This document shows positions 30,812 through 36,461 of a DNA stretch of 64,000 bases, piece by piece. The notes beneath the pieces were generated by a model, which did not search any database, had not been told where the DNA came from, and saw nothing but the letters and a program-made list of their open reading frames with translations. The position numbers and the translations under genes are program-made. The first letter of the stretch is position 1. Every line of letters starts with the position of its first letter. The DNA is taken from positions 544,001 through 608,000 of the forward strand of contig JBEPYN010000001.1 in assembly GCA_041641305.1 (NCBI GenBank), given 5' to 3'. Source of the stretch: Nitrososphaerota archaeon. GTDB lineage: Archaea; Thermoproteota; Nitrososphaeria_A; Caldarchaeales; Caldarchaeaceae.

Positions 30812-32698
30812 CAGATGGAGAGCCAGAGCTATTATCGCGAGCGTTACCCCGTCATCGCCCAGCACGCCCACCCAGAGGGGTATCAGGCCAGCTATTCCAA
30901 GCGTGATGAGAGACAGCTTCAGCCCTATAGCGAGCAGTAGGTTTGCCTTGAGTGTCTTCACAAGCCTCCTGCTCAGCCTGATTAGATACTCAACTATGCG
31001 GAGGTCGTTTCCCATTAGGGCTACGTCGGCAGCCTCTATCGCTATGTCATTACCAGCAGTACCCACGGCTACGCCGACATCAGCGGCCGCCAACACTGCG
31101 GCGTCATTAACGCCATCGCCAACCATCATCACTGGCCCATAACGCTGACGAAGCTCCCTGACCACGCGAACCTTATCCTCTGGTAGTAGGCCGGCATAAT
31201 ACTCGTCTATCCCCAGATGCTCGGCCACCTCGCGCGCCGCGCGCTCGTCATCGCCCGTGAGCATGACAACCCTAATGCCCAGGCGCTTAATCTTCTGAAC
31301 AGCCTCGCGCGCCTCTGGCCGCGGGGTGTCGGAGAGGCTTATCGTCCCAGCAAACCTGTTATTCACGGCAACGTCAACGACTGAGCCGCGCAGCTCCTCA
31401 TGAACCACGTGGCTATGGTTTGCCTGTGAATTCACGAATGAGTGGCGGCCAATAATTATCAGCTGGCCATCCGTTGTCAGGGCGATCACACCCATCCCTG
31501 GCCTCTCCTCAGCCTTCACATCGCCGTGAAGGCTTATCCCGTTGGACTTTGCCGCCTCAACAATAGCATTAGCTATCGGATGCGTTGAGCGCGAGGCTGC
31601 AAGGGCTGAGAGCTTCAGAAGCTCCCTCTCGCTGAAGCCGCTTGTGGGCTTAACACCAACAACGCGAAGCACACCCTTCGTTAATGTCCCAGTCTTGTCA
31701 AATGCAACGACGCGCGTACGCGCCATATTCTCCATGTATATCCCGCCCTTGACCAGTGAGGAGCTCCACATGGCGCGCGTAAGCCCCAGCATCACGGTAA
31801 CTGGTGTTGCTATCACGATTGCGCTTGGGCAGGCTATGATGAGGACGACCAGCGCCCTATACACCCATTTCATCAGGGGCTGGGCTAGCATTAGCGGCGG
31901 GACAACAGCCACGAGGGCTGCCAGAACAGTAGTAGCTGGGGTGTAGTATCTGGAGAACCTGTCTATGAAGCGCTCCAGCCTAATCTTCTTCTCGCGCGCC
32001 TCAATAACAAGCTTGGTTATCCTACTGACGGTGGAATCCCTAAACGGCTTCTCCGCAACAAGCTCCAGCGAGCCCGTTAAGTTAAGCGTTCCAGAGAGAA
32101 CCACATCCCCAGGCTGCTTCTCAACTGGTATTGACTCACCAGTTACTGTTGACTGGTCTATTGTGGAGCTTCCCGCCACGATGCGGCCGTCAACTGGTAT
32201 GCGCCAGCCAGGCTTGACAACCACGATGTCGCCGACCTCTATCTCCTCTACGGGTATCTCCTCAACCTTGTCGACGCGCTTGACGAGGGCGCGCTGGGGG
32301 AGGAGCGACGCCATCCGCCGCGTGATGTTCCTAACCTTATCAACGGTATAATCCTCCAGCGTCTCGGCGAAGTGGTAGAGTATCAGGACGGCCGCGCCCT
32401 CCTCATAGAAGCCTATCGCGGCCGCTCCCACCGCACCGGTGAGCATGAGGACATCGGTGTTGAACGGGTTGCTCCTAAACCTGCGCACAGCGTCATAAGC
32501 AACGGGGACGGCGACCAGCAGGAGAGCAACGCCAGCCAGGAAATGCTCAACAGGGCCTCCCAAGCCCTGCCAGAGCATCGCGAGAGCCGCGAGAAGGAAG
32601 GCTAAAGCTACTAAAGCCAGAACGAGCCGCTTTGACAGGCGGCTCTCATATTCCTCGCTCTCGCTATGCTCGTGCCCACCAGTCAAAACAAACGTCAA
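30797..32698 (-). CDS. Heavy-metal (Zn/Cd/Co) P1B-type ATPase
   Basis: TGESIPV, IACPSA, FDKTGTLT, HP, MVGDGVND; short His-containing N-terminus. Confidence 0.92.
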   Translation of the reverse strand: MTFVLTGGHEHSESEEYESRLSKRLVLALVALAFLLAALAMLWQGLGGPVEHFLAGVALLLVAVPVAYDAVRRFRSNPFNTDVLMLTGAVGAAAIGFYEEGAAVLILYHFAETLEDYTVDKVRNITRRMASLLPQRALVKRVDKVEEIPVEEIEVGDIVVVKPGWRIPVDGRIVAGSSTIDQSTVTGESIPVEKQPGDVVLSGTLNLTGSLELVAEKPFRDSTVSRITKLVIEAREKKIRLERFIDRFSRYYTPATTVLAALVAVVPPLMLAQPLMKWVYRALVVLIIACPSAIVIATPVTVMLGLTRAMWSSSLVKGGIYMENMARTRVVAFDKTGTLTKGVLRVVGVKPTSGFSERELLKLSALAASRSTHPIANAIVEAAKSNGISLHGDVKAEERPGMGVIALTTDGQLIIIGRHSFVNSQANHSHVVHEELRGSVVDVAVNNRFAGTISLSDTPRPEAREAVQKIKRLGIRVVMLTGDDERAAREVAEHLGIDEYYAGLLPEDKVRVVRELRQRYGPVMMVGDGVNDAAVLAAADVGVAVGTAGNDIAIEAADVALMGNDLRIVEYLIRLSRRLVKTLKANLLLAIGLKLSLITLGIAGLIPLWVGVLGDDGVTLAIIALALHLLRFR

Positions 32699-32750
32699 GA
32701 CAGAACACCAGCTCCGCTATCATATAAGTATTTTCGTCAATTGATAATTG

Positions 32751-33474
32751 GATAGTGTCCGGATAAGGGACTATATTTAAAGGCCGGTCTTCGATGATAA
32801 TCTGCGTGGATGCCGTCGCCCTGATCTCGAGCTGTTTCGTGCGCAACAAAAAAGCCGTGAGGTGAAGGTCCTCGCTGTCTTGGAGTACATGTTCCGCGGT
32901 AGCTGTAGGAGGGTCTCTAAAGTTCTGAGAAGTCTACTGTACACGATCTTGCTAGGAAGGTATCCTCAACGGTAGCAGTAGCCTCAGAGCCGAAGCGTAG
33001 GAGGTGCATAGCTGTTGATGAGACTAAGCTCAGGGTTAAGGGCGCTGTCGTCTACGTCTGGTCAGCTGTAGACGTCGATTCCGGCGAATTGCTGGCTCTA
33101 GAGGCTTCATACGGGAGGAGCTGCCTCAACGCGTTAACCTTCCTGAAAAAGGCCCTCAATATGTGCTTGAACAAACCTAAGGTTATAGTCGATAGGGGTC
33201 CATGGTATATCGTTGAGCATATGCTCAACAAAGTATCCGTGGGCGTTACAGAGGCTAGGGCTGGAATACGAGCACCAGAGGTTCGGAATGAGGAACAGGG
33301 TAGAGAGGTTCTTCAGATACCTAAAAGAGAGGACAGGATTATATCATAACAAATTGAGCGCGAAGAACTACGAACAAGGAATAAAGAACCTAAACTTGCT
33401 CCTAAATCTCTTCACGCTATACTACCAAACCGTTAGGAACGGGGGTGGGTAGAGGTGCTTATCCGGACACTATC
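32751..33474 (+). mobile_element. IS6-family insertion sequence (724 bp), transposase inactivated
   Basis: Perfect 17-bp TIRs GATAGTGTCCGGATAAG (32751-32767) and CTTATCCGGACACTATC (33458-33474); fragments IAVDETKL, YVWSAVDVDSGE, VDRGPWY, RNRVERFFRYLKERT split by frameshifts. Confidence 0.9.
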
Positions 33475-33806
33475 GCTTAAATGATTTAGAGACGGGTTTT
33501 ACACTTTCTTGGGGAAGGTCTTCGGCATTGTTTGTTCTTCTCTCTTAGGGTTTCATAATTACTCACCTTTACAAGGTGACGACTACGTAACATGACGCTA
33601 CCCCGGAATCATCACTGGCATACCGAGATGAAAAAAGGAAAGAAGGAGGGGTTGTATACACCACCTTCATCTCCTACGCCTTCGCCCAAGACTTTCCCCG
33701 CGGAACGCCCGACTGTCTTCCGCCCGCATGTCATCACCCTCTGGAGTATGGGGTTGACGCCGCAGGCGCCGGCTGGTTTCTGTCACCCTTCATAGGGAAA
33801 GGTTCA

Positions 33807-34580
33807 TTAGGAGCCCTCACCCAATATACCCTCGGCAGGGGCTGCCGGAGGGGTCTTGGGAAGGACTTCCTCCCCTTCCCCTCCAAGTGGCAGACCCTGA
33901 CACTGGGGGCCTTGGGTGAAGGCTTTCTCGACGGCTGTTGTAAGGTTGTCTAATGCCTGTTTGTATTCTCTGAGCTCTTTTCCGAGGTGGGTGTCGAGCA
34001 GGTGGAAACCGTGAAGTAGTAGCGCTGTTCTCGCCAGATTTTTCACCGCCACATGGTCTCTGTCATCTCGGTGTCCGCATTCTTCGCACTTCAGTCTATC
34101 CCATCTGCCTTTCTCATGCTTCATCAGTTTGTTGCATTTTGGACATAGACTGCTGGTGTAGTGGGGAGGCACTGTTACTAGCTTCCCCATCTTTTCGCAT
34201 GCTGTTGACAGTCGTCGTATAAGCTTGGCTATGGGCCAGCTGCTGATGATATGTGACTTTTCAGGGTCTTTTGCTTTTAGCCGCTGCTTTAGCTGACCGG
34301 CGTTTAGCCGCTCCAGAACCACTGCCTGTGTATTCGATGCAAGCCTCTTCACTAAACCGGCTGATTTGTTCACCCAGTCGTTGTCCAGGTTTCTAGCATA
34401 TCTCAGCCACGCATATGCTGGTCTTCCATGGATCCTTAGAGACCGCCTGTTAACCCTTCTGACAAACAATAGCTTGCCGACGTTGCGTGAGACACGTTTA
34501 TAACCCCTGAAGCGGATCAGCAGCCCAACCTCAACCTCGGCAACTATGATGTCTCTGACGTTTACGTCCACCACGACCAT
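33807..34580 (-). CDS. tnpB: Minimal TnpB-like nuclease (RuvC + Zn finger only, 257 aa)
   Basis: Starts at RuvC-I (MVVVDVN); VVLERL (RuvC-II); VPPHYTSSLCPKC...CEECG.RDDRDHVAVKNL (ZnF and RuvC-III). Confidence 0.85.
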   Translation of the reverse strand: MVVVDVNVRDIIVAEVEVGLLIRFRGYKRVSRNVGKLLFVRRVNRRSLRIHGRPAYAWLRYARNLDNDWVNKSAGLVKRLASNTQAVVLERLNAGQLKQRLKAKDPEKSHIISSWPIAKLIRRLSTACEKMGKLVTVPPHYTSSLCPKCNKLMKHEKGRWDRLKCEECGHRDDRDHVAVKNLARTALLLHGFHLLDTHLGKELREYKQALDNLTTAVEKAFTQGPQCQGLPLGGEGEEVLPKTPPAAPAEGILGEGS

Positions 34581-34584
34581 TTTT

Positions 34585-34934
34585 ATGGATCCCCGCAGCG
34601 CATAGCTCCGAAGCAGATCTGGAAAATATCCTCCCGCCCCGGCCCCCAACCCCGAAGAGCCGGAGCCGCCAAAGCGTTCTCCAGATCCTCCCATAGCTCT
34701 CCCCGCTCATCCCTAGACCCGGAGGCTGAGACCCCAGGCCTTTGGGATGAGACCTGGGGGCTTGGGTCTAGGGATCATCAAGCACGCTAACTGCCGCCGA
34801 ATGTGTAACATCTGCGTAGGGTCGACAACCCTACTTTCTGCGGGCAGCCGACTACCGCCCTTTTAACGGCCAGGCGACTACCGGCCCTATAGCCCAGCTA
34901 GGCGGGGCTTTCCACTCCTTCTCCTTACCTAGCC
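34585..34934 (-). ncRNA. Putative structured ncRNA or leader upstream of the minimal TnpB
   Basis: Series of stems with G-U pairs valid on the minus strand, a cUUCGg tetraloop, three phased hairpins, and a TATA-like TTATTATA about 25 nt upstream. Confidence 0.55.
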
Positions 34935-35027
34935 GTTTTCAACTACATTGTCCCGATATAATAACTTAACTTCCCACTTTCAGATACCTCTTAACTTATT
35001 TGAGGCTACCCTACTATTCACTGTAGT

Positions 35028-36302
35028 ATGCTCCTTAGACGGGTGTCCTTAGATAAGAAGAGACTCCAGGTCAGCATCTCAGGCAAAGTTTTCAATGTGT
35101 GGGGTAGGGAGGACGAGGGTTATGTCCTGAAAGGTGGTCTAAACCTGCTTGAGCACGTGCGGGGTATTAGGCTGTCTGACCTTCCTGAGCATTTGGTGGT
35201 AGAGATTGGTCCTAGGTTATCGGAGAAGTTTGGACTACAAAGAAGATTGAATTTCTCGGCAAGTCGGAAGGCTTTCAAAGTATCCTATCTGCTAACTGCT
35301 TCACGGGAAACTCTGATAGATGTTGAAGAGTATGCGTCAGAGATTGCTCGCAAGGCTGAGGAACATGGATTCAGCTGTCAAACCAGCAAGACGGAAGAAG
35401 AGACCCACATTGAGGCTAGTTACCGGCTGGGCGGAGGAGAGGAGATAGGGTATATTGTGGAGCTTTTCGAGGATGCATTAGCGTCTGCAGAGAGGTCGAT
35501 TGAGCAGAAAGAAAAGAGTATGCGTCAAAAGCTGGAGTACTGGATAGGAAATGTGGAACGGCTTGATGGCCGCATTCTCTCAAAACTGAACGGCTTAGAA
35601 GGCGTGGCTAAATGGATTATCCATCCGCTCACCAGTAAAGAGATAGCGTTCATACTCTTCGGCATCAAGCCTGAGTCGTTTAATCTGGGAGCCAAGCTGT
35701 CTTATGCATTGCTTCAAAGATTCGGGGTCTGGGATGGAGAGACAATAGATAGGCTTAAGGCCTTAGGCATAATCGCATACATGGAAGATAATTCAAGGCT
35801 CTTCTGCACGTTCACAGGATGGCGGGTCAAAAAGCTCCTCGAACAAATGATCTTCTTGGAACCTAAAAGCTTCACCTCATCCACAGCCAGCGGCTACGAC
35901 CCAATCTCCCTCCTCCACTATATCGGGAGGAACTTCCCATCACTGGCAATATCCAAAAGCAGGAGATTCAGAGGAAACAAAGGCGGAGCATTCAGATACG
36001 CCGAAAAAATGCTGAAACAGCTAACCTTCACACATATAGCAGCCCTAGCCGGAATCTATTGGCGGCTTCCCATACCCAAGCAGGTATTAGACGAAACCCT
36101 CAGCCAGCTGGTCAGCCTAGGCTTCATAAGCCACAACAGAAAAATCAAACCCTTCGCCAAATGGATAATAAGCCTGCTAAACGGCTACATCAGAAAAACC
36201 AAACTAGCCACAAACCCAAACCAAAAACAAACCCAGACAACACTGTTCAACTGGAACTGCCTACAAGAAACATTCATAAAACGAATATCTGAAAAACGGT
36301 AA
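35028..36302 (+). CDS. Hypothetical protein (424 aa) in the island
   Basis: Long ORF with ATG, divergent from the TnpB locus; no motif recognised. Confidence 0.7.
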   Translation: MLLRRVSLDKKRLQVSISGKVFNVWGREDEGYVLKGGLNLLEHVRGIRLSDLPEHLVVEIGPRLSEKFGLQRRLNFSASRKAFKVSYLLTASRETLIDVEEYASEIARKAEEHGFSCQTSKTEEETHIEASYRLGGGEEIGYIVELFEDALASAERSIEQKEKSMRQKLEYWIGNVERLDGRILSKLNGLEGVAKWIIHPLTSKEIAFILFGIKPESFNLGAKLSYALLQRFGVWDGETIDRLKALGIIAYMEDNSRLFCTFTGWRVKKLLEQMIFLEPKSFTSSTASGYDPISLLHYIGRNFPSLAISKSRRFRGNKGGAFRYAEKMLKQLTFTHIAALAGIYWRLPIPKQVLDETLSQLVSLGFISHNRKIKPFAKWIISLLNGYIRKTKLATNPNQKQTQTTLFNWNCLQETFIKRISEKR

Positions 36303-36337
36303 AAACCGGGTCAGGTCCGTGAAATTTCTGGAGGCTG

Positions 36338-36461
36338 TCCCGCGGGGCGGATTTGAACCGCCGACCACCCGGTTTCCATGTTGCCTGGCGGGCTGATCTT
36401 CGGCTCAGCCACTTGGCTGACCGCTACAGCCGGGCGCTCTACCAGGCTGAGCTACCGCGGG
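36338..36461 (-). tRNA. tRNA-Tyr (GTA) with a 50-nt intron at 37/38
   Basis: CCCGCGG acceptor; CCCGG-CTGTAG[intron]A-CCGGG; T arm GGCGG-TTCAAAT-CCGCC; bulge-helix junction CUGU/AUGG with AAA bulge. Confidence 0.95.

Follow-up and report, generated by a model that had tools for sequence, protein, structure and literature searches.

A stretch of 64,000 nucleotides from the genome of a hot-spring Nitrososphaerota archaeon of the order Caldarchaeales (assembly GCA_041641305.1, contig JBEPYN010000001.1, forward-strand positions 544,001 to 608,000), hereafter the window, whose numbering is used throughout, contains a gene for a short TnpB-like nuclease, which we call mini-TnpB. The best reading of this locus is that an exapted, N-terminally truncated TnpB forms part of a conserved accessory cassette that lies just downstream of a tRNA gene, and that also includes a structured 5' leader, an omegaRNA-like 3' RNA and a divergent gene for a partner protein of 424 residues, p424. 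We put at slightly under an even chance the view that mini-TnpB, the 3' RNA and p424 make up a split RNA-guided nuclease aimed at the adjacent tRNA gene, much as a free-standing homing endonuclease would be. A preliminary description of the locus had proposed a new compact RNA-guided system. This proposal is borne out in so far as the locus encodes a RuvC-only TnpB under selection together with a conserved structured RNA, and fails in the role that it assigned to the RNA upstream of the gene; the case for RNA guidance rests on the 3' RNA, on a tRNA-antisense segment within it and on the partner protein, none of which that description had used.

A TnpB reduced to its RuvC and zinc-ribbon core

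The mini-TnpB gene occupies positions 34694 to 33807 of the minus strand and encodes 295 residues, counted from a conserved ATG. The residues of the RuvC triad, D43 in RuvC-I (34568-66), E128 in RuvC-II (34313-11) and D211/D213 in RuvC-III (34064-34056), as well as the four TNB cysteines of the CCCC zinc ribbon (C184, C187, C203 and C206; 34145-34077), show no variation in 17 homologues, in line with the preliminary description, which had noted that the catalytic residues and the zinc finger are kept. The only Pfam match of the protein is PF07282 (the Cas12f1-like TNB zinc ribbon; 1.5e-13, above the cut-off), and the NCBIfam guided_TnpB model is matched only over its positions 265-388, with a score under the cut-off. 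When the family profile is compared with a canonical TnpB of 389 residues using hhalign, residues 38-224 align with residues 176-354 at a probability of 98.8%; canonical residues 1-175 are unmatched and only 37 residues precede the RuvC-I strand, which means that the WED and REC domains are not present. An AlphaFold (AF2) model (predicted local distance difference test score, pLDDT, 78), in which residues 1-24 and 257-295 are disordered, can be aligned with no more than the RuvC/TNB halves of TnpB, Cas12f, CasPhi and Cas12g (Z 11.5-14.8), and the top Foldseek match of the model is Cas12g, whose lead over other Cas12 and TnpB structures is within noise. As judged from its sequence, the protein is an intact TnpB-type RuvC and zinc-finger core that does not have the WED/REC lobe.

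The ATG at 34694, preceded by the Shine-Dalgarno-like GGGGAGAG, is invariant in the nearest clade and is most likely the true start of the gene, which gives a protein of 295 rather than 257 residues. The open reading frame (ORF) of 257 residues reported previously was correctly seen as a RuvC-only core, and only its start, placed at RuvC-I (34580), probably needs to be moved. In one clade, loci L037-L041 (e.g. L039:2857-3000), the conserved start ATG is changed to ACG, and no in-frame ATG, GTG or TTG is found before the RuvC-I strand. The ORFs of these loci are intact and under selection despite the ACG, which suggests that they use an unusual start codon.

Among 5.8 billion proteins, the mini-TnpB family forms about 24 clusters at 90% identity, all of 260-363 residues, in Caldarchaeales, Wolframiiraptor, Calditenuis, Pelearchaeum and similar lineages; beyond it, the nearest relatives found in profile searches are ordinary TnpBs at 29% identity. 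The closest public relative of the locus is in a metagenome-assembled genome of Candidatus Caldarchaeum subterraneum, with a protein that is 96% identical. The frame upstream of RuvC-I could be read in 50 of the 58 loci and closes 40-70 codons above the RuvC-I strand; the outlier, L007, has 95 open codons before RuvC-I, and its close relative L008 has 23. Because the in-frame stretch closes in every readable locus, the missing WED/REC lobe is a trait of the family and not a local frameshift. A frameshifted or decayed N-terminus upstream can be ruled out, since the open stretch is short in every clade and no other frame is conserved. No homologue was found with a full-length N-terminus, or with a frameshifted one, over this region, which agrees with the earlier assertion that it is not decayed coding sequence.

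The ratio of nonsynonymous to synonymous substitution rates (dN/dS) of the nuclease core is 0.06-0.19 in six independent close pairs and, by this measure, the nuclease is under purifying selection. Frameshifted pseudogene copies of mini-TnpB do exist elsewhere, in several homologues. In the host genome (1.66 Mb, 99.3% complete) the locus is single-copy and has neither a neighbouring transposase gene nor a repeated copy elsewhere. No match to the Y1 transposase (Y1_Tnp) was found in the whole genome, in which serine recombinases were not searched for genome-wide; the earlier statement that no tnpA lies nearby thus extends, for this transposase, to the entire genome. With no Y1_Tnp match and a single copy, the locus lacks the hallmarks of IS200/IS605 or IS607 elements, and the suggestion that the ORF is cargo of a structured mobile RNA or single-stranded DNA element is unsupported, there being no adjoining transposase gene and no repeats. 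The genome contains no TnpB-family match besides the gene at 34694-33807, which rules out that the recognition lobe is provided by another TnpB of the same genome.

The most distant mini-TnpBs (40% identity; L007 and L066) are found without p424 and without leader hairpins. They have neighbours of about 250 residues with a winged helix (L007:2495-3229 and L066:3982-4740, both on the minus strand), which are 38% identical to each other over 72 residues and are unlike p424.

A conserved omegaRNA-like RNA at the 3' end of the gene

The omegaRNA-like 3' RNA extends over about 33631 to 33890 on the minus strand, overlapping the last ~80 nt of the ORF, and ends with a C-rich tail (33653-33637) and a T6 run (33636-33631). 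Its nucleotide identity is 67-79% in most clades (those that blastn reaches), which is above that of the protein, and the C-terminal tails of annotated homologues look like a single DNA translated in more than one frame. An alignment that we refer to as A5 covers the region in all its 21 loci, whose protein identities range from 40% upward; the consensus structure of these 21 sequences comprises 34 pairs and is 91% paired. In 20 of these pairs both sides have changed, compared with 12.7 ± 2.0 in shuffled alignments (0 of 500 as good), and slid controls score far lower. In the tail of the ORF that overlaps the RNA, the synonymous rate is below that of the core at long distances, which fits constraint by the RNA. 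[quoted passage not shown]

At the 3' terminus, where a guide derived from the flank would be expected in an OMEGA system, there are instead the conserved tail and the T-run, and the guide-like segment is internal. Of the 21 loci checked, 20 have a run of T5-T7 at the end of the conserved region and L061 has T4 runs, and the similarity to the strain with the 96% identical protein ends at 33632, where the T-run ends. The 3' RNA seems to have an end of its own and not to continue into the flank.

An internal segment complementary to the neighbouring tRNA gene

Between two conserved blocks of the 3' RNA lies a variable stretch (A5 columns ~209-250), which in the window contains the guide-like segment ACAGUCGGGCGUUC at 33716-33703 on the minus strand, unpaired in the consensus structure. 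An intron-containing gene for tRNA-Tyr(GTA), with an intron of 34 nt, is located at 36337-36461 on the minus strand, its 3' end facing the end of p424; ARAGORN detects it when introns are allowed and misses it with default settings, so that the intron mode is needed for such loci. The segment can pair with positions 23-36 of this tRNA (predicted target, 36426-36439) over 14 contiguous pairs, 12 of which are Watson-Crick and two G.U, a result not reached in any of 500 shuffles and the best pairing in the entire 3' RNA. It appears only when G.U is allowed: an exact-match search of the whole window transcript against tRNA-Tyr found nothing.

Comparable complementarity is present in other clades, in which the neighbouring tRNA gene is often a different one. 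The segments of four clade B loci match the neighbouring tRNA-Tyr (12/12), that of L061 matches tRNA-Phe (18/20, both exceptions being U.G), those of L039 and L038 match tRNA-Glu (12/12), that of L065 matches the 5' end of tRNA-Glu (12/12), and that of L007 matches tRNA-Arg (14/14). In the shuffle controls for these matches, at most 4 of 200-300 shuffles were as good. When each segment was scored against its own and the other tRNA species, it scored highest, or tied, on its own, save in L020 and L022; that of L020 scores higher on the tRNA-Tyr of clade B than on its own tRNA.

The tRNA gene is located either beyond p424 on the nuclease strand, or 60-330 nt past the T-run on the other strand, except in L020, in which it lies ~1.2 kb past the RNA end. 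Where a tRNA was detected, it has its 3' end towards the cassette in most loci. At the DNA level both inverted and direct repeats occur, depending on the locus, whereas the RNA is antisense to the tRNA in every case, and this constancy fits selection on pairing rather than an integration scar. In L033 the segment, which has an insertion, matches an AT-rich non-tRNA sequence at 20 of 22 positions; this sequence sits ~1.8 kb upstream of the RuvC-I codon, beyond p424, where other loci have their tRNA, and a second similar copy is found nearby. The rule that emerges from the alignments may thus be that the segment matches the neighbourhood, tRNA genes being the usual neighbour. When the 5' variable linker, the P1 loop of the leader, the left region and the full 5' and 3' RNAs were compared with the rest of the host genome, only chance-level hits of 12-15 nt were found.

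The partner protein p424 and LAGLIDADG sister cassettes

Directly upstream of the nuclease gene, and divergent to it, lies the gene for p424 (35028-36302, plus strand), a conserved partner that the preliminary description had not considered. Homologues that are 21-38% identical are found at the same position and in the same orientation in most loci, across all clades with an identity of at least 44%, and p424 occurs almost exclusively in such cassettes. With 28 representatives among 1.84 billion proteins, the p424 family is about as rare as that of the nuclease. No Pfam or NCBIfam match to p424 was obtained. An AlphaFold (AF2) model (pLDDT 89.5) predicts an N-terminal beta-rich and an alpha/beta domain, a long helix and MarR-like winged-helix domains, with only generic or weak fold matches in Foldseek searches of the PDB, VIA-wide, and in the ESM Atlas by structure and by features. 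The alignment of the family has no invariant acidic, histidine or tyrosine residue, and from its model p424 looks like a nucleic-acid-binding protein and not an enzyme. The possibilities that it is a diverged WED/REC lobe (hhalign probability of 0.07 against canonical TnpB) or a transposase (no invariant catalytic residues) are both unsupported.

Two divergent relatives of p424 (P0020 and P0026) are not accompanied by mini-TnpB; they are paired divergently with a protein of ~415 residues that has a helix-turn-helix (HTH) and a LAGLIDADG_3 match (Pfam, 7.9e-15, above the cut-off). The intergenic regions of these sister cassettes (L075:2161-5392 and L074:1-2219) have the leader plan described below on the nuclease strand, with UUAUCGU/UAAUCGU loops, and a profile built from mini-TnpB leaders finds one of them at E = 2.8e-8, that is, by sequence homology in that locus. 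The leader therefore accompanies p424-type cassettes, whichever nuclease they encode. The L075 cassette lies 45 nt from a tRNA-Ala gene and has IS240-type transposase genes on its flanks. In another locus (L079:1-5586), decayed remnants of p424 and mini-TnpB adjoin genes for an Eco57I-type methylase-nuclease and BrxL, that is, in the context of a BREX/defence island.

The structured 5' leader

The region between the presumed promoter and the ATG (34934-34695, minus strand) is a structured non-coding leader, supported by folding, covariation and a metatranscriptome contig. It consists of a stem, P1 (34934-28 with 34902-34896; GGCUAGG/CCUAGCU), three phased hairpins of 19 nt (34886-68, 34860-42 and 34834-16), a variable linker, a long hairpin (34775-34709) in which a perfect 12-bp stem (34775-64 with 34720-09) encloses CCCCAGG/CCUGGGG, and finally the Shine-Dalgarno-like motif and the ATG. 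Another hairpin (34688-34615), with a 12-bp stem (34688-77 with 34626-15) that contains two G.U pairs and consequently forms on the minus strand only, falls in codons 3-27 of the 295-residue ORF, where the encoded peptide is predicted to be disordered; other clades have a structural equivalent of different sequence. A TATA-like box (34963-34955), found in the same place in most clades examined, lies ~21 nt before the first leader stem, from which it can be inferred that the nuclease transcript starts near 34934. Between the two divergent promoters there is a TGAAAGTG motif (34982-34975), present in most clades examined and in both LAGLIDADG loci, which is possibly an operator. No T-run separates the leader from the ORF. 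The stems, the TATA-like box and the minus-strand G.U pairs had all been noticed in the preliminary description, and each of these features is indeed present, the observation as a whole lying far beyond chance.

The 380 nt upstream of the MVVVDVN codon fold better than shuffled sequences on the minus strand (z -3.0, a value that none of 100 shuffles equalled) and no better than them on the plus strand (z -0.8). In the 12 loci with phased hairpins, none of the 300 shuffles made per locus matched these. Compensatory changes are seen when the 240 nt from the TATA box to the ATG are aligned within the nearest clade. For P1 and the three hairpins, 95.8% of the cells of an 11-sequence alignment are paired and both partners have changed in 13 of the 25 pairs; the pairing falls to 32-51% when the partner is displaced by 1-3 columns. 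The leader also has invariant G.U pairs, which favour an RNA on the strand of the gene.

In other clades the leader differs in sequence and mostly keeps its plan, i.e. the TGAAAGTG motif, the TATA box, P1 and hairpins. There are one to three of these hairpins, with a period of 24-26 nt; their stems vary between copies and their loops of 6-7 nt agree within each clade (yAGUCGn, UAAUCGn, GCUCGA, UUUGAM). Usually a long hairpin precedes the start codon and another follows among the first ~30 codons. Leader hairpins are absent from the most distant mini-TnpB clades, and the long hairpin is absent from clade B. A scan of 32500-36000 against Rfam 15 at a relaxed E-value returned only IMES-1 at chance level (19.6 bits versus a cut-off of 81 bits). 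The upstream structure is conserved, lies under RNA-library contigs and matches no Rfam family, so that none of these points speaks against the preliminary description. The further idea, that this RNA stands in for the recognition lobe, does not fit the presence of a leader of the same layout before LAGLIDADG genes. Because a homologous leader precedes the nuclease genes of these sister cassettes, the leader would be an element of the cassette and not a replacement of the lobe that TnpB has lost.

Transcription and genomic context

Parts of the locus, from a closely related strain, are present in four metatranscriptomes. RNA-library contigs cover 33632-34914 with a word depth of 477-1500, compared with 4-12 on the p424 side, and continue past 33632 into strain-specific sequence. 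Both the join between leader and ORF, spanned by a single contig (33969-34914), and the join between ORF and 3' RNA are covered. It should be noted that such contigs give neither strand nor transcript ends, and that they may include carried-over DNA, so we use them as supporting evidence only. Together, the leader, the 295-residue nuclease and the 3' RNA appear to be on one transcript from ~34934 to the oligo-T at 33631. One metatranscriptome (X2) has several 60-nt contigs in 34428-34570, over codons ~40-90, whose word depths, at 7,000-28,000, are higher than in the remaining transcript by a factor of 5-20; this peak could reflect a stable fragment, sequence of another organism or an assembly effect.

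A broken remnant of an IS6/IS240-type transposase (32979-33474, 33089-33452) abuts the 3' end of the cassette from outside and marks a disrupted flank. A 75-nt piece of this remnant recurs on another contig (C2), and related IS6 copies are found beside the tRNA-Tyr gene in a sister genome, G009, as well as beside the LAGLIDADG cassettes. G009, a complete genome of the same genus, does not have the cassette: the last ~50 nt of p424 lie by the same tRNA-Tyr gene, with an IS6 copy after them, and no sister genome provided a clean empty site. Sixteen of 40 relatives have any TnpB-like match, and about seven have a member of the mini-TnpB family. The cassette is an accessory, patchily distributed element in variable DNA at tRNA genes.

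Discussion

From the composition of the cassette, the selection on its nuclease, the covariation in both of its RNAs and the complementarity to tRNA genes, we infer the following mode of action. The nuclease would bind its own 3' RNA as TnpB binds omegaRNA, and p424, as a separate protein, would supply the nucleic-acid-binding work that was lost with the WED/REC lobe. The complex would then recognise the adjacent tRNA gene by base pairing and cut there, and cutting would favour retention of the cassette or its copying by recombination, as for a free-standing homing endonuclease. The 5' leader would stay outside the guide complex, most likely as a p424 binding site or as a site of translational control.

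Several points weigh against this proposal. Binding and cleavage by the cassette are predictions, and p424 has no similarity to WED/REC that sequence comparison can detect. At 12-20 nt the guide-like segment is short, and it is placed internally, ahead of a conserved tail and a terminator; we know of no characterised TnpB whose guide is anything other than a 3'-terminal read-through of the flank. In the six loci that were inspected, no shared motif resembling a target-adjacent motif was visible beside the targets. Cassette-bearing genomes and five cassette-free genomes of the genus have an identical target, and its presence in the former means that self-cutting would need some safeguard. The segment of L033 matches a non-tRNA flank, and in L022 the matching tRNA-Tyr is not found in the DNA examined. 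An RNA target would be as compatible as DNA with the G.U pairs of two loci. Finally, the variable stretch further downstream changes gradually among close relatives and the locus is single-copy, which does not speak for recent mobility.

Other explanations start from the same observations. The cassette could be RNA-guided without being a homing system, namely a defence or competition module, or a regulated toxin, directed against elements with fragments of tRNA genes, such as the attachment sites that integrating plasmids and viruses have, and p424 would be its sensor or regulator. Its patchy distribution, its location in tRNA-adjacent variable regions with IS remnants, the decayed copy next to BREX/Eco57I-type genes and the interchangeable nuclease partner would all suit this, and a role as toxins has been suggested for active, immobilised TnpBs (PMC10691335, RHH/MazE-TnpB section). 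We hold this to be unlikely, because the host's own tRNA gene has the same target and because the complementarity of the segments is mostly to the tRNA's 5' half, with the D arm and the anticodon stem. The attachment sites of integrative elements usually copy the 3' half. Alternatively, the target may be RNA: the 3' RNA would pair with the D/anticodon arm of a tRNA or its precursor, and the complex would cut that RNA or regulate it. In any DNA orientation it is the sense strand of the tRNA that is matched, every non-Watson-Crick pair in the window and in L061 is a G.U wobble, and Cas12g, the best Foldseek match, targets RNA. Nevertheless, the RuvC domains of TnpB cleave DNA, a mature tRNA in its folded state is an unfavourable partner for pairing, the L033 match is not to a tRNA and the rank of Cas12g is not significant, so that an RNA target seems improbable to us.

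The complementarity might also be a by-product of the arrival of the cassette, i.e. a recombination or integration scar rather than a working guide, a view to which the location at the 3' end of the tRNA, a classical integration site, in most loci with a detected tRNA would lend itself. It is made quite improbable by the origin of the matching piece in the 5' half of the tRNA and not its 3' end, by its constant place in the same columns of a conserved structured RNA, by the constant sense of the RNA when the DNA orientation flips, and by the fact that the segment has followed four different tRNA species. That the large 5' RNA scaffolds the nuclease and replaces its WED/REC lobe, as the preliminary description had it, accords with an RNA that is conserved, covarying and on the same RNA-library contig as the ORF; we consider it very improbable, as the same type of leader stands before LAGLIDADG genes (sequence-homologous in one locus), the number of hairpins varies from one to three with none in the most distant mini-TnpB clades, and clade B lacks the long hairpin. 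Lastly, it is hardly credible that the locus is what remains of a tnpB-only insertion sequence, decaying and now functionless, as the single copy, the IS6 remnant next door and the frameshifted homologues might hint: the dN/dS values already contradict decay, as do the invariant catalytic residues, the conserved RNAs and partner gene, and the high representation in RNA libraries.

The split homing-like nuclease that we favour shares features with several known systems. Like the TnpB/omegaRNA (also termed right-end RNA, reRNA) systems of IS200/IS605 and IS607 (8H1J, 8IAZ), it has the RuvC D/E/D triad and the TNB zinc ribbon, a structured RNA that starts inside the 3' end of the ORF, and an RNA segment complementary to DNA beside the element. 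It differs from them in that mini-TnpB has no WED/REC, with ~175 residues fewer, in that a conserved tail and oligo-T, without read-through into the flank, come after the internal guide-like segment, in that the match lies 0.3-2.7 kb from this segment instead of at the element junction, and in that the cassette is single-copy, has no TnpA, and has a dedicated partner protein and a structured 5' leader. Exapted TnpBs with partners (RHH/MazE-TnpB, Sigma-TnpB and TldR) are likewise immobilised and have a DNA-binding partner and a long 3' RNA; however, they retain the complete TnpB architecture and many have lost catalysis, whereas here the partner is an orphan family of 424 residues and the nuclease is truncated with, by its sequence, intact catalytic residues.

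Short (~220 residues), RuvC-only, non-mobile TnpBs have been described in Halobacteria (e.g. WP_004214924.1; Altae-Tran et al. 2023, PMC10691335, 'Other nonmobile TnpB systems'), in a one-sentence mention, the only related one that we found, which judged them unlikely to use a guide. They too are archaeal TnpB derivatives cut to RuvC, apparently active and not mobile; the flanking conserved RNAs, the tRNA-antisense segment and the partner set the present family apart, by description only. The TnpB census of the same authors (PMC10691335) includes partner-linked exapted TnpBs, but nothing like p424, its RNAs or the tRNA match. The nearest functional analogue would be SegB of phage T4, a free-standing homing endonuclease that cuts tRNA genes, according to a passage in a 2026 review (PMC13565253, citing PMC2330249). 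As with SegB and LAGLIDADG homing enzymes, the nuclease gene lies beside, and not in, the conserved tRNA gene that it appears to recognise, and in the sister cassettes a LAGLIDADG protein, of the classical homing-endonuclease fold, occupies the nuclease position. In contrast to these enzymes, recognition would be by RNA pairing and not by protein, and location and complementarity are what point to homing. In the full-text literature on TnpB in connection with Aigarchaeota, truncation or loss of REC, and targeting of tRNA genes, no description of the system was found.

To our knowledge, every characterised TnpB, Fanzor and Cas12 nuclease combines catalytic core and recognition lobe in a single polypeptide, and its guide is terminal in the RNA. 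The mini-TnpB family has lost the lobe and is nonetheless under selection; it has kept an omegaRNA-like RNA and gained a partner, and an internal segment of the RNA tracks the neighbouring tRNA across clades. It is possible, if doubtful, that the nuclease has three parts, i.e. a catalytic subunit of 295 residues consisting of RuvC/TNB only, p424 as a recognition protein that also serves LAGLIDADG nucleases, and an RNA with an internal guide for the tRNA gene. Such an arrangement would be a new architecture for RNA-guided DNA targeting, with the smallest catalytic subunit known for one. If the proposed split nuclease is real, it would show how far the core of TnpB can shrink and that the recognition function can come from a separate protein, and it would mean that RNA-guided and protein-guided (LAGLIDADG) nucleases can share a niche as selfish cassettes beside tRNA genes. 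A catalytic unit of fewer than 300 residues would also be a possible starting point for engineering.

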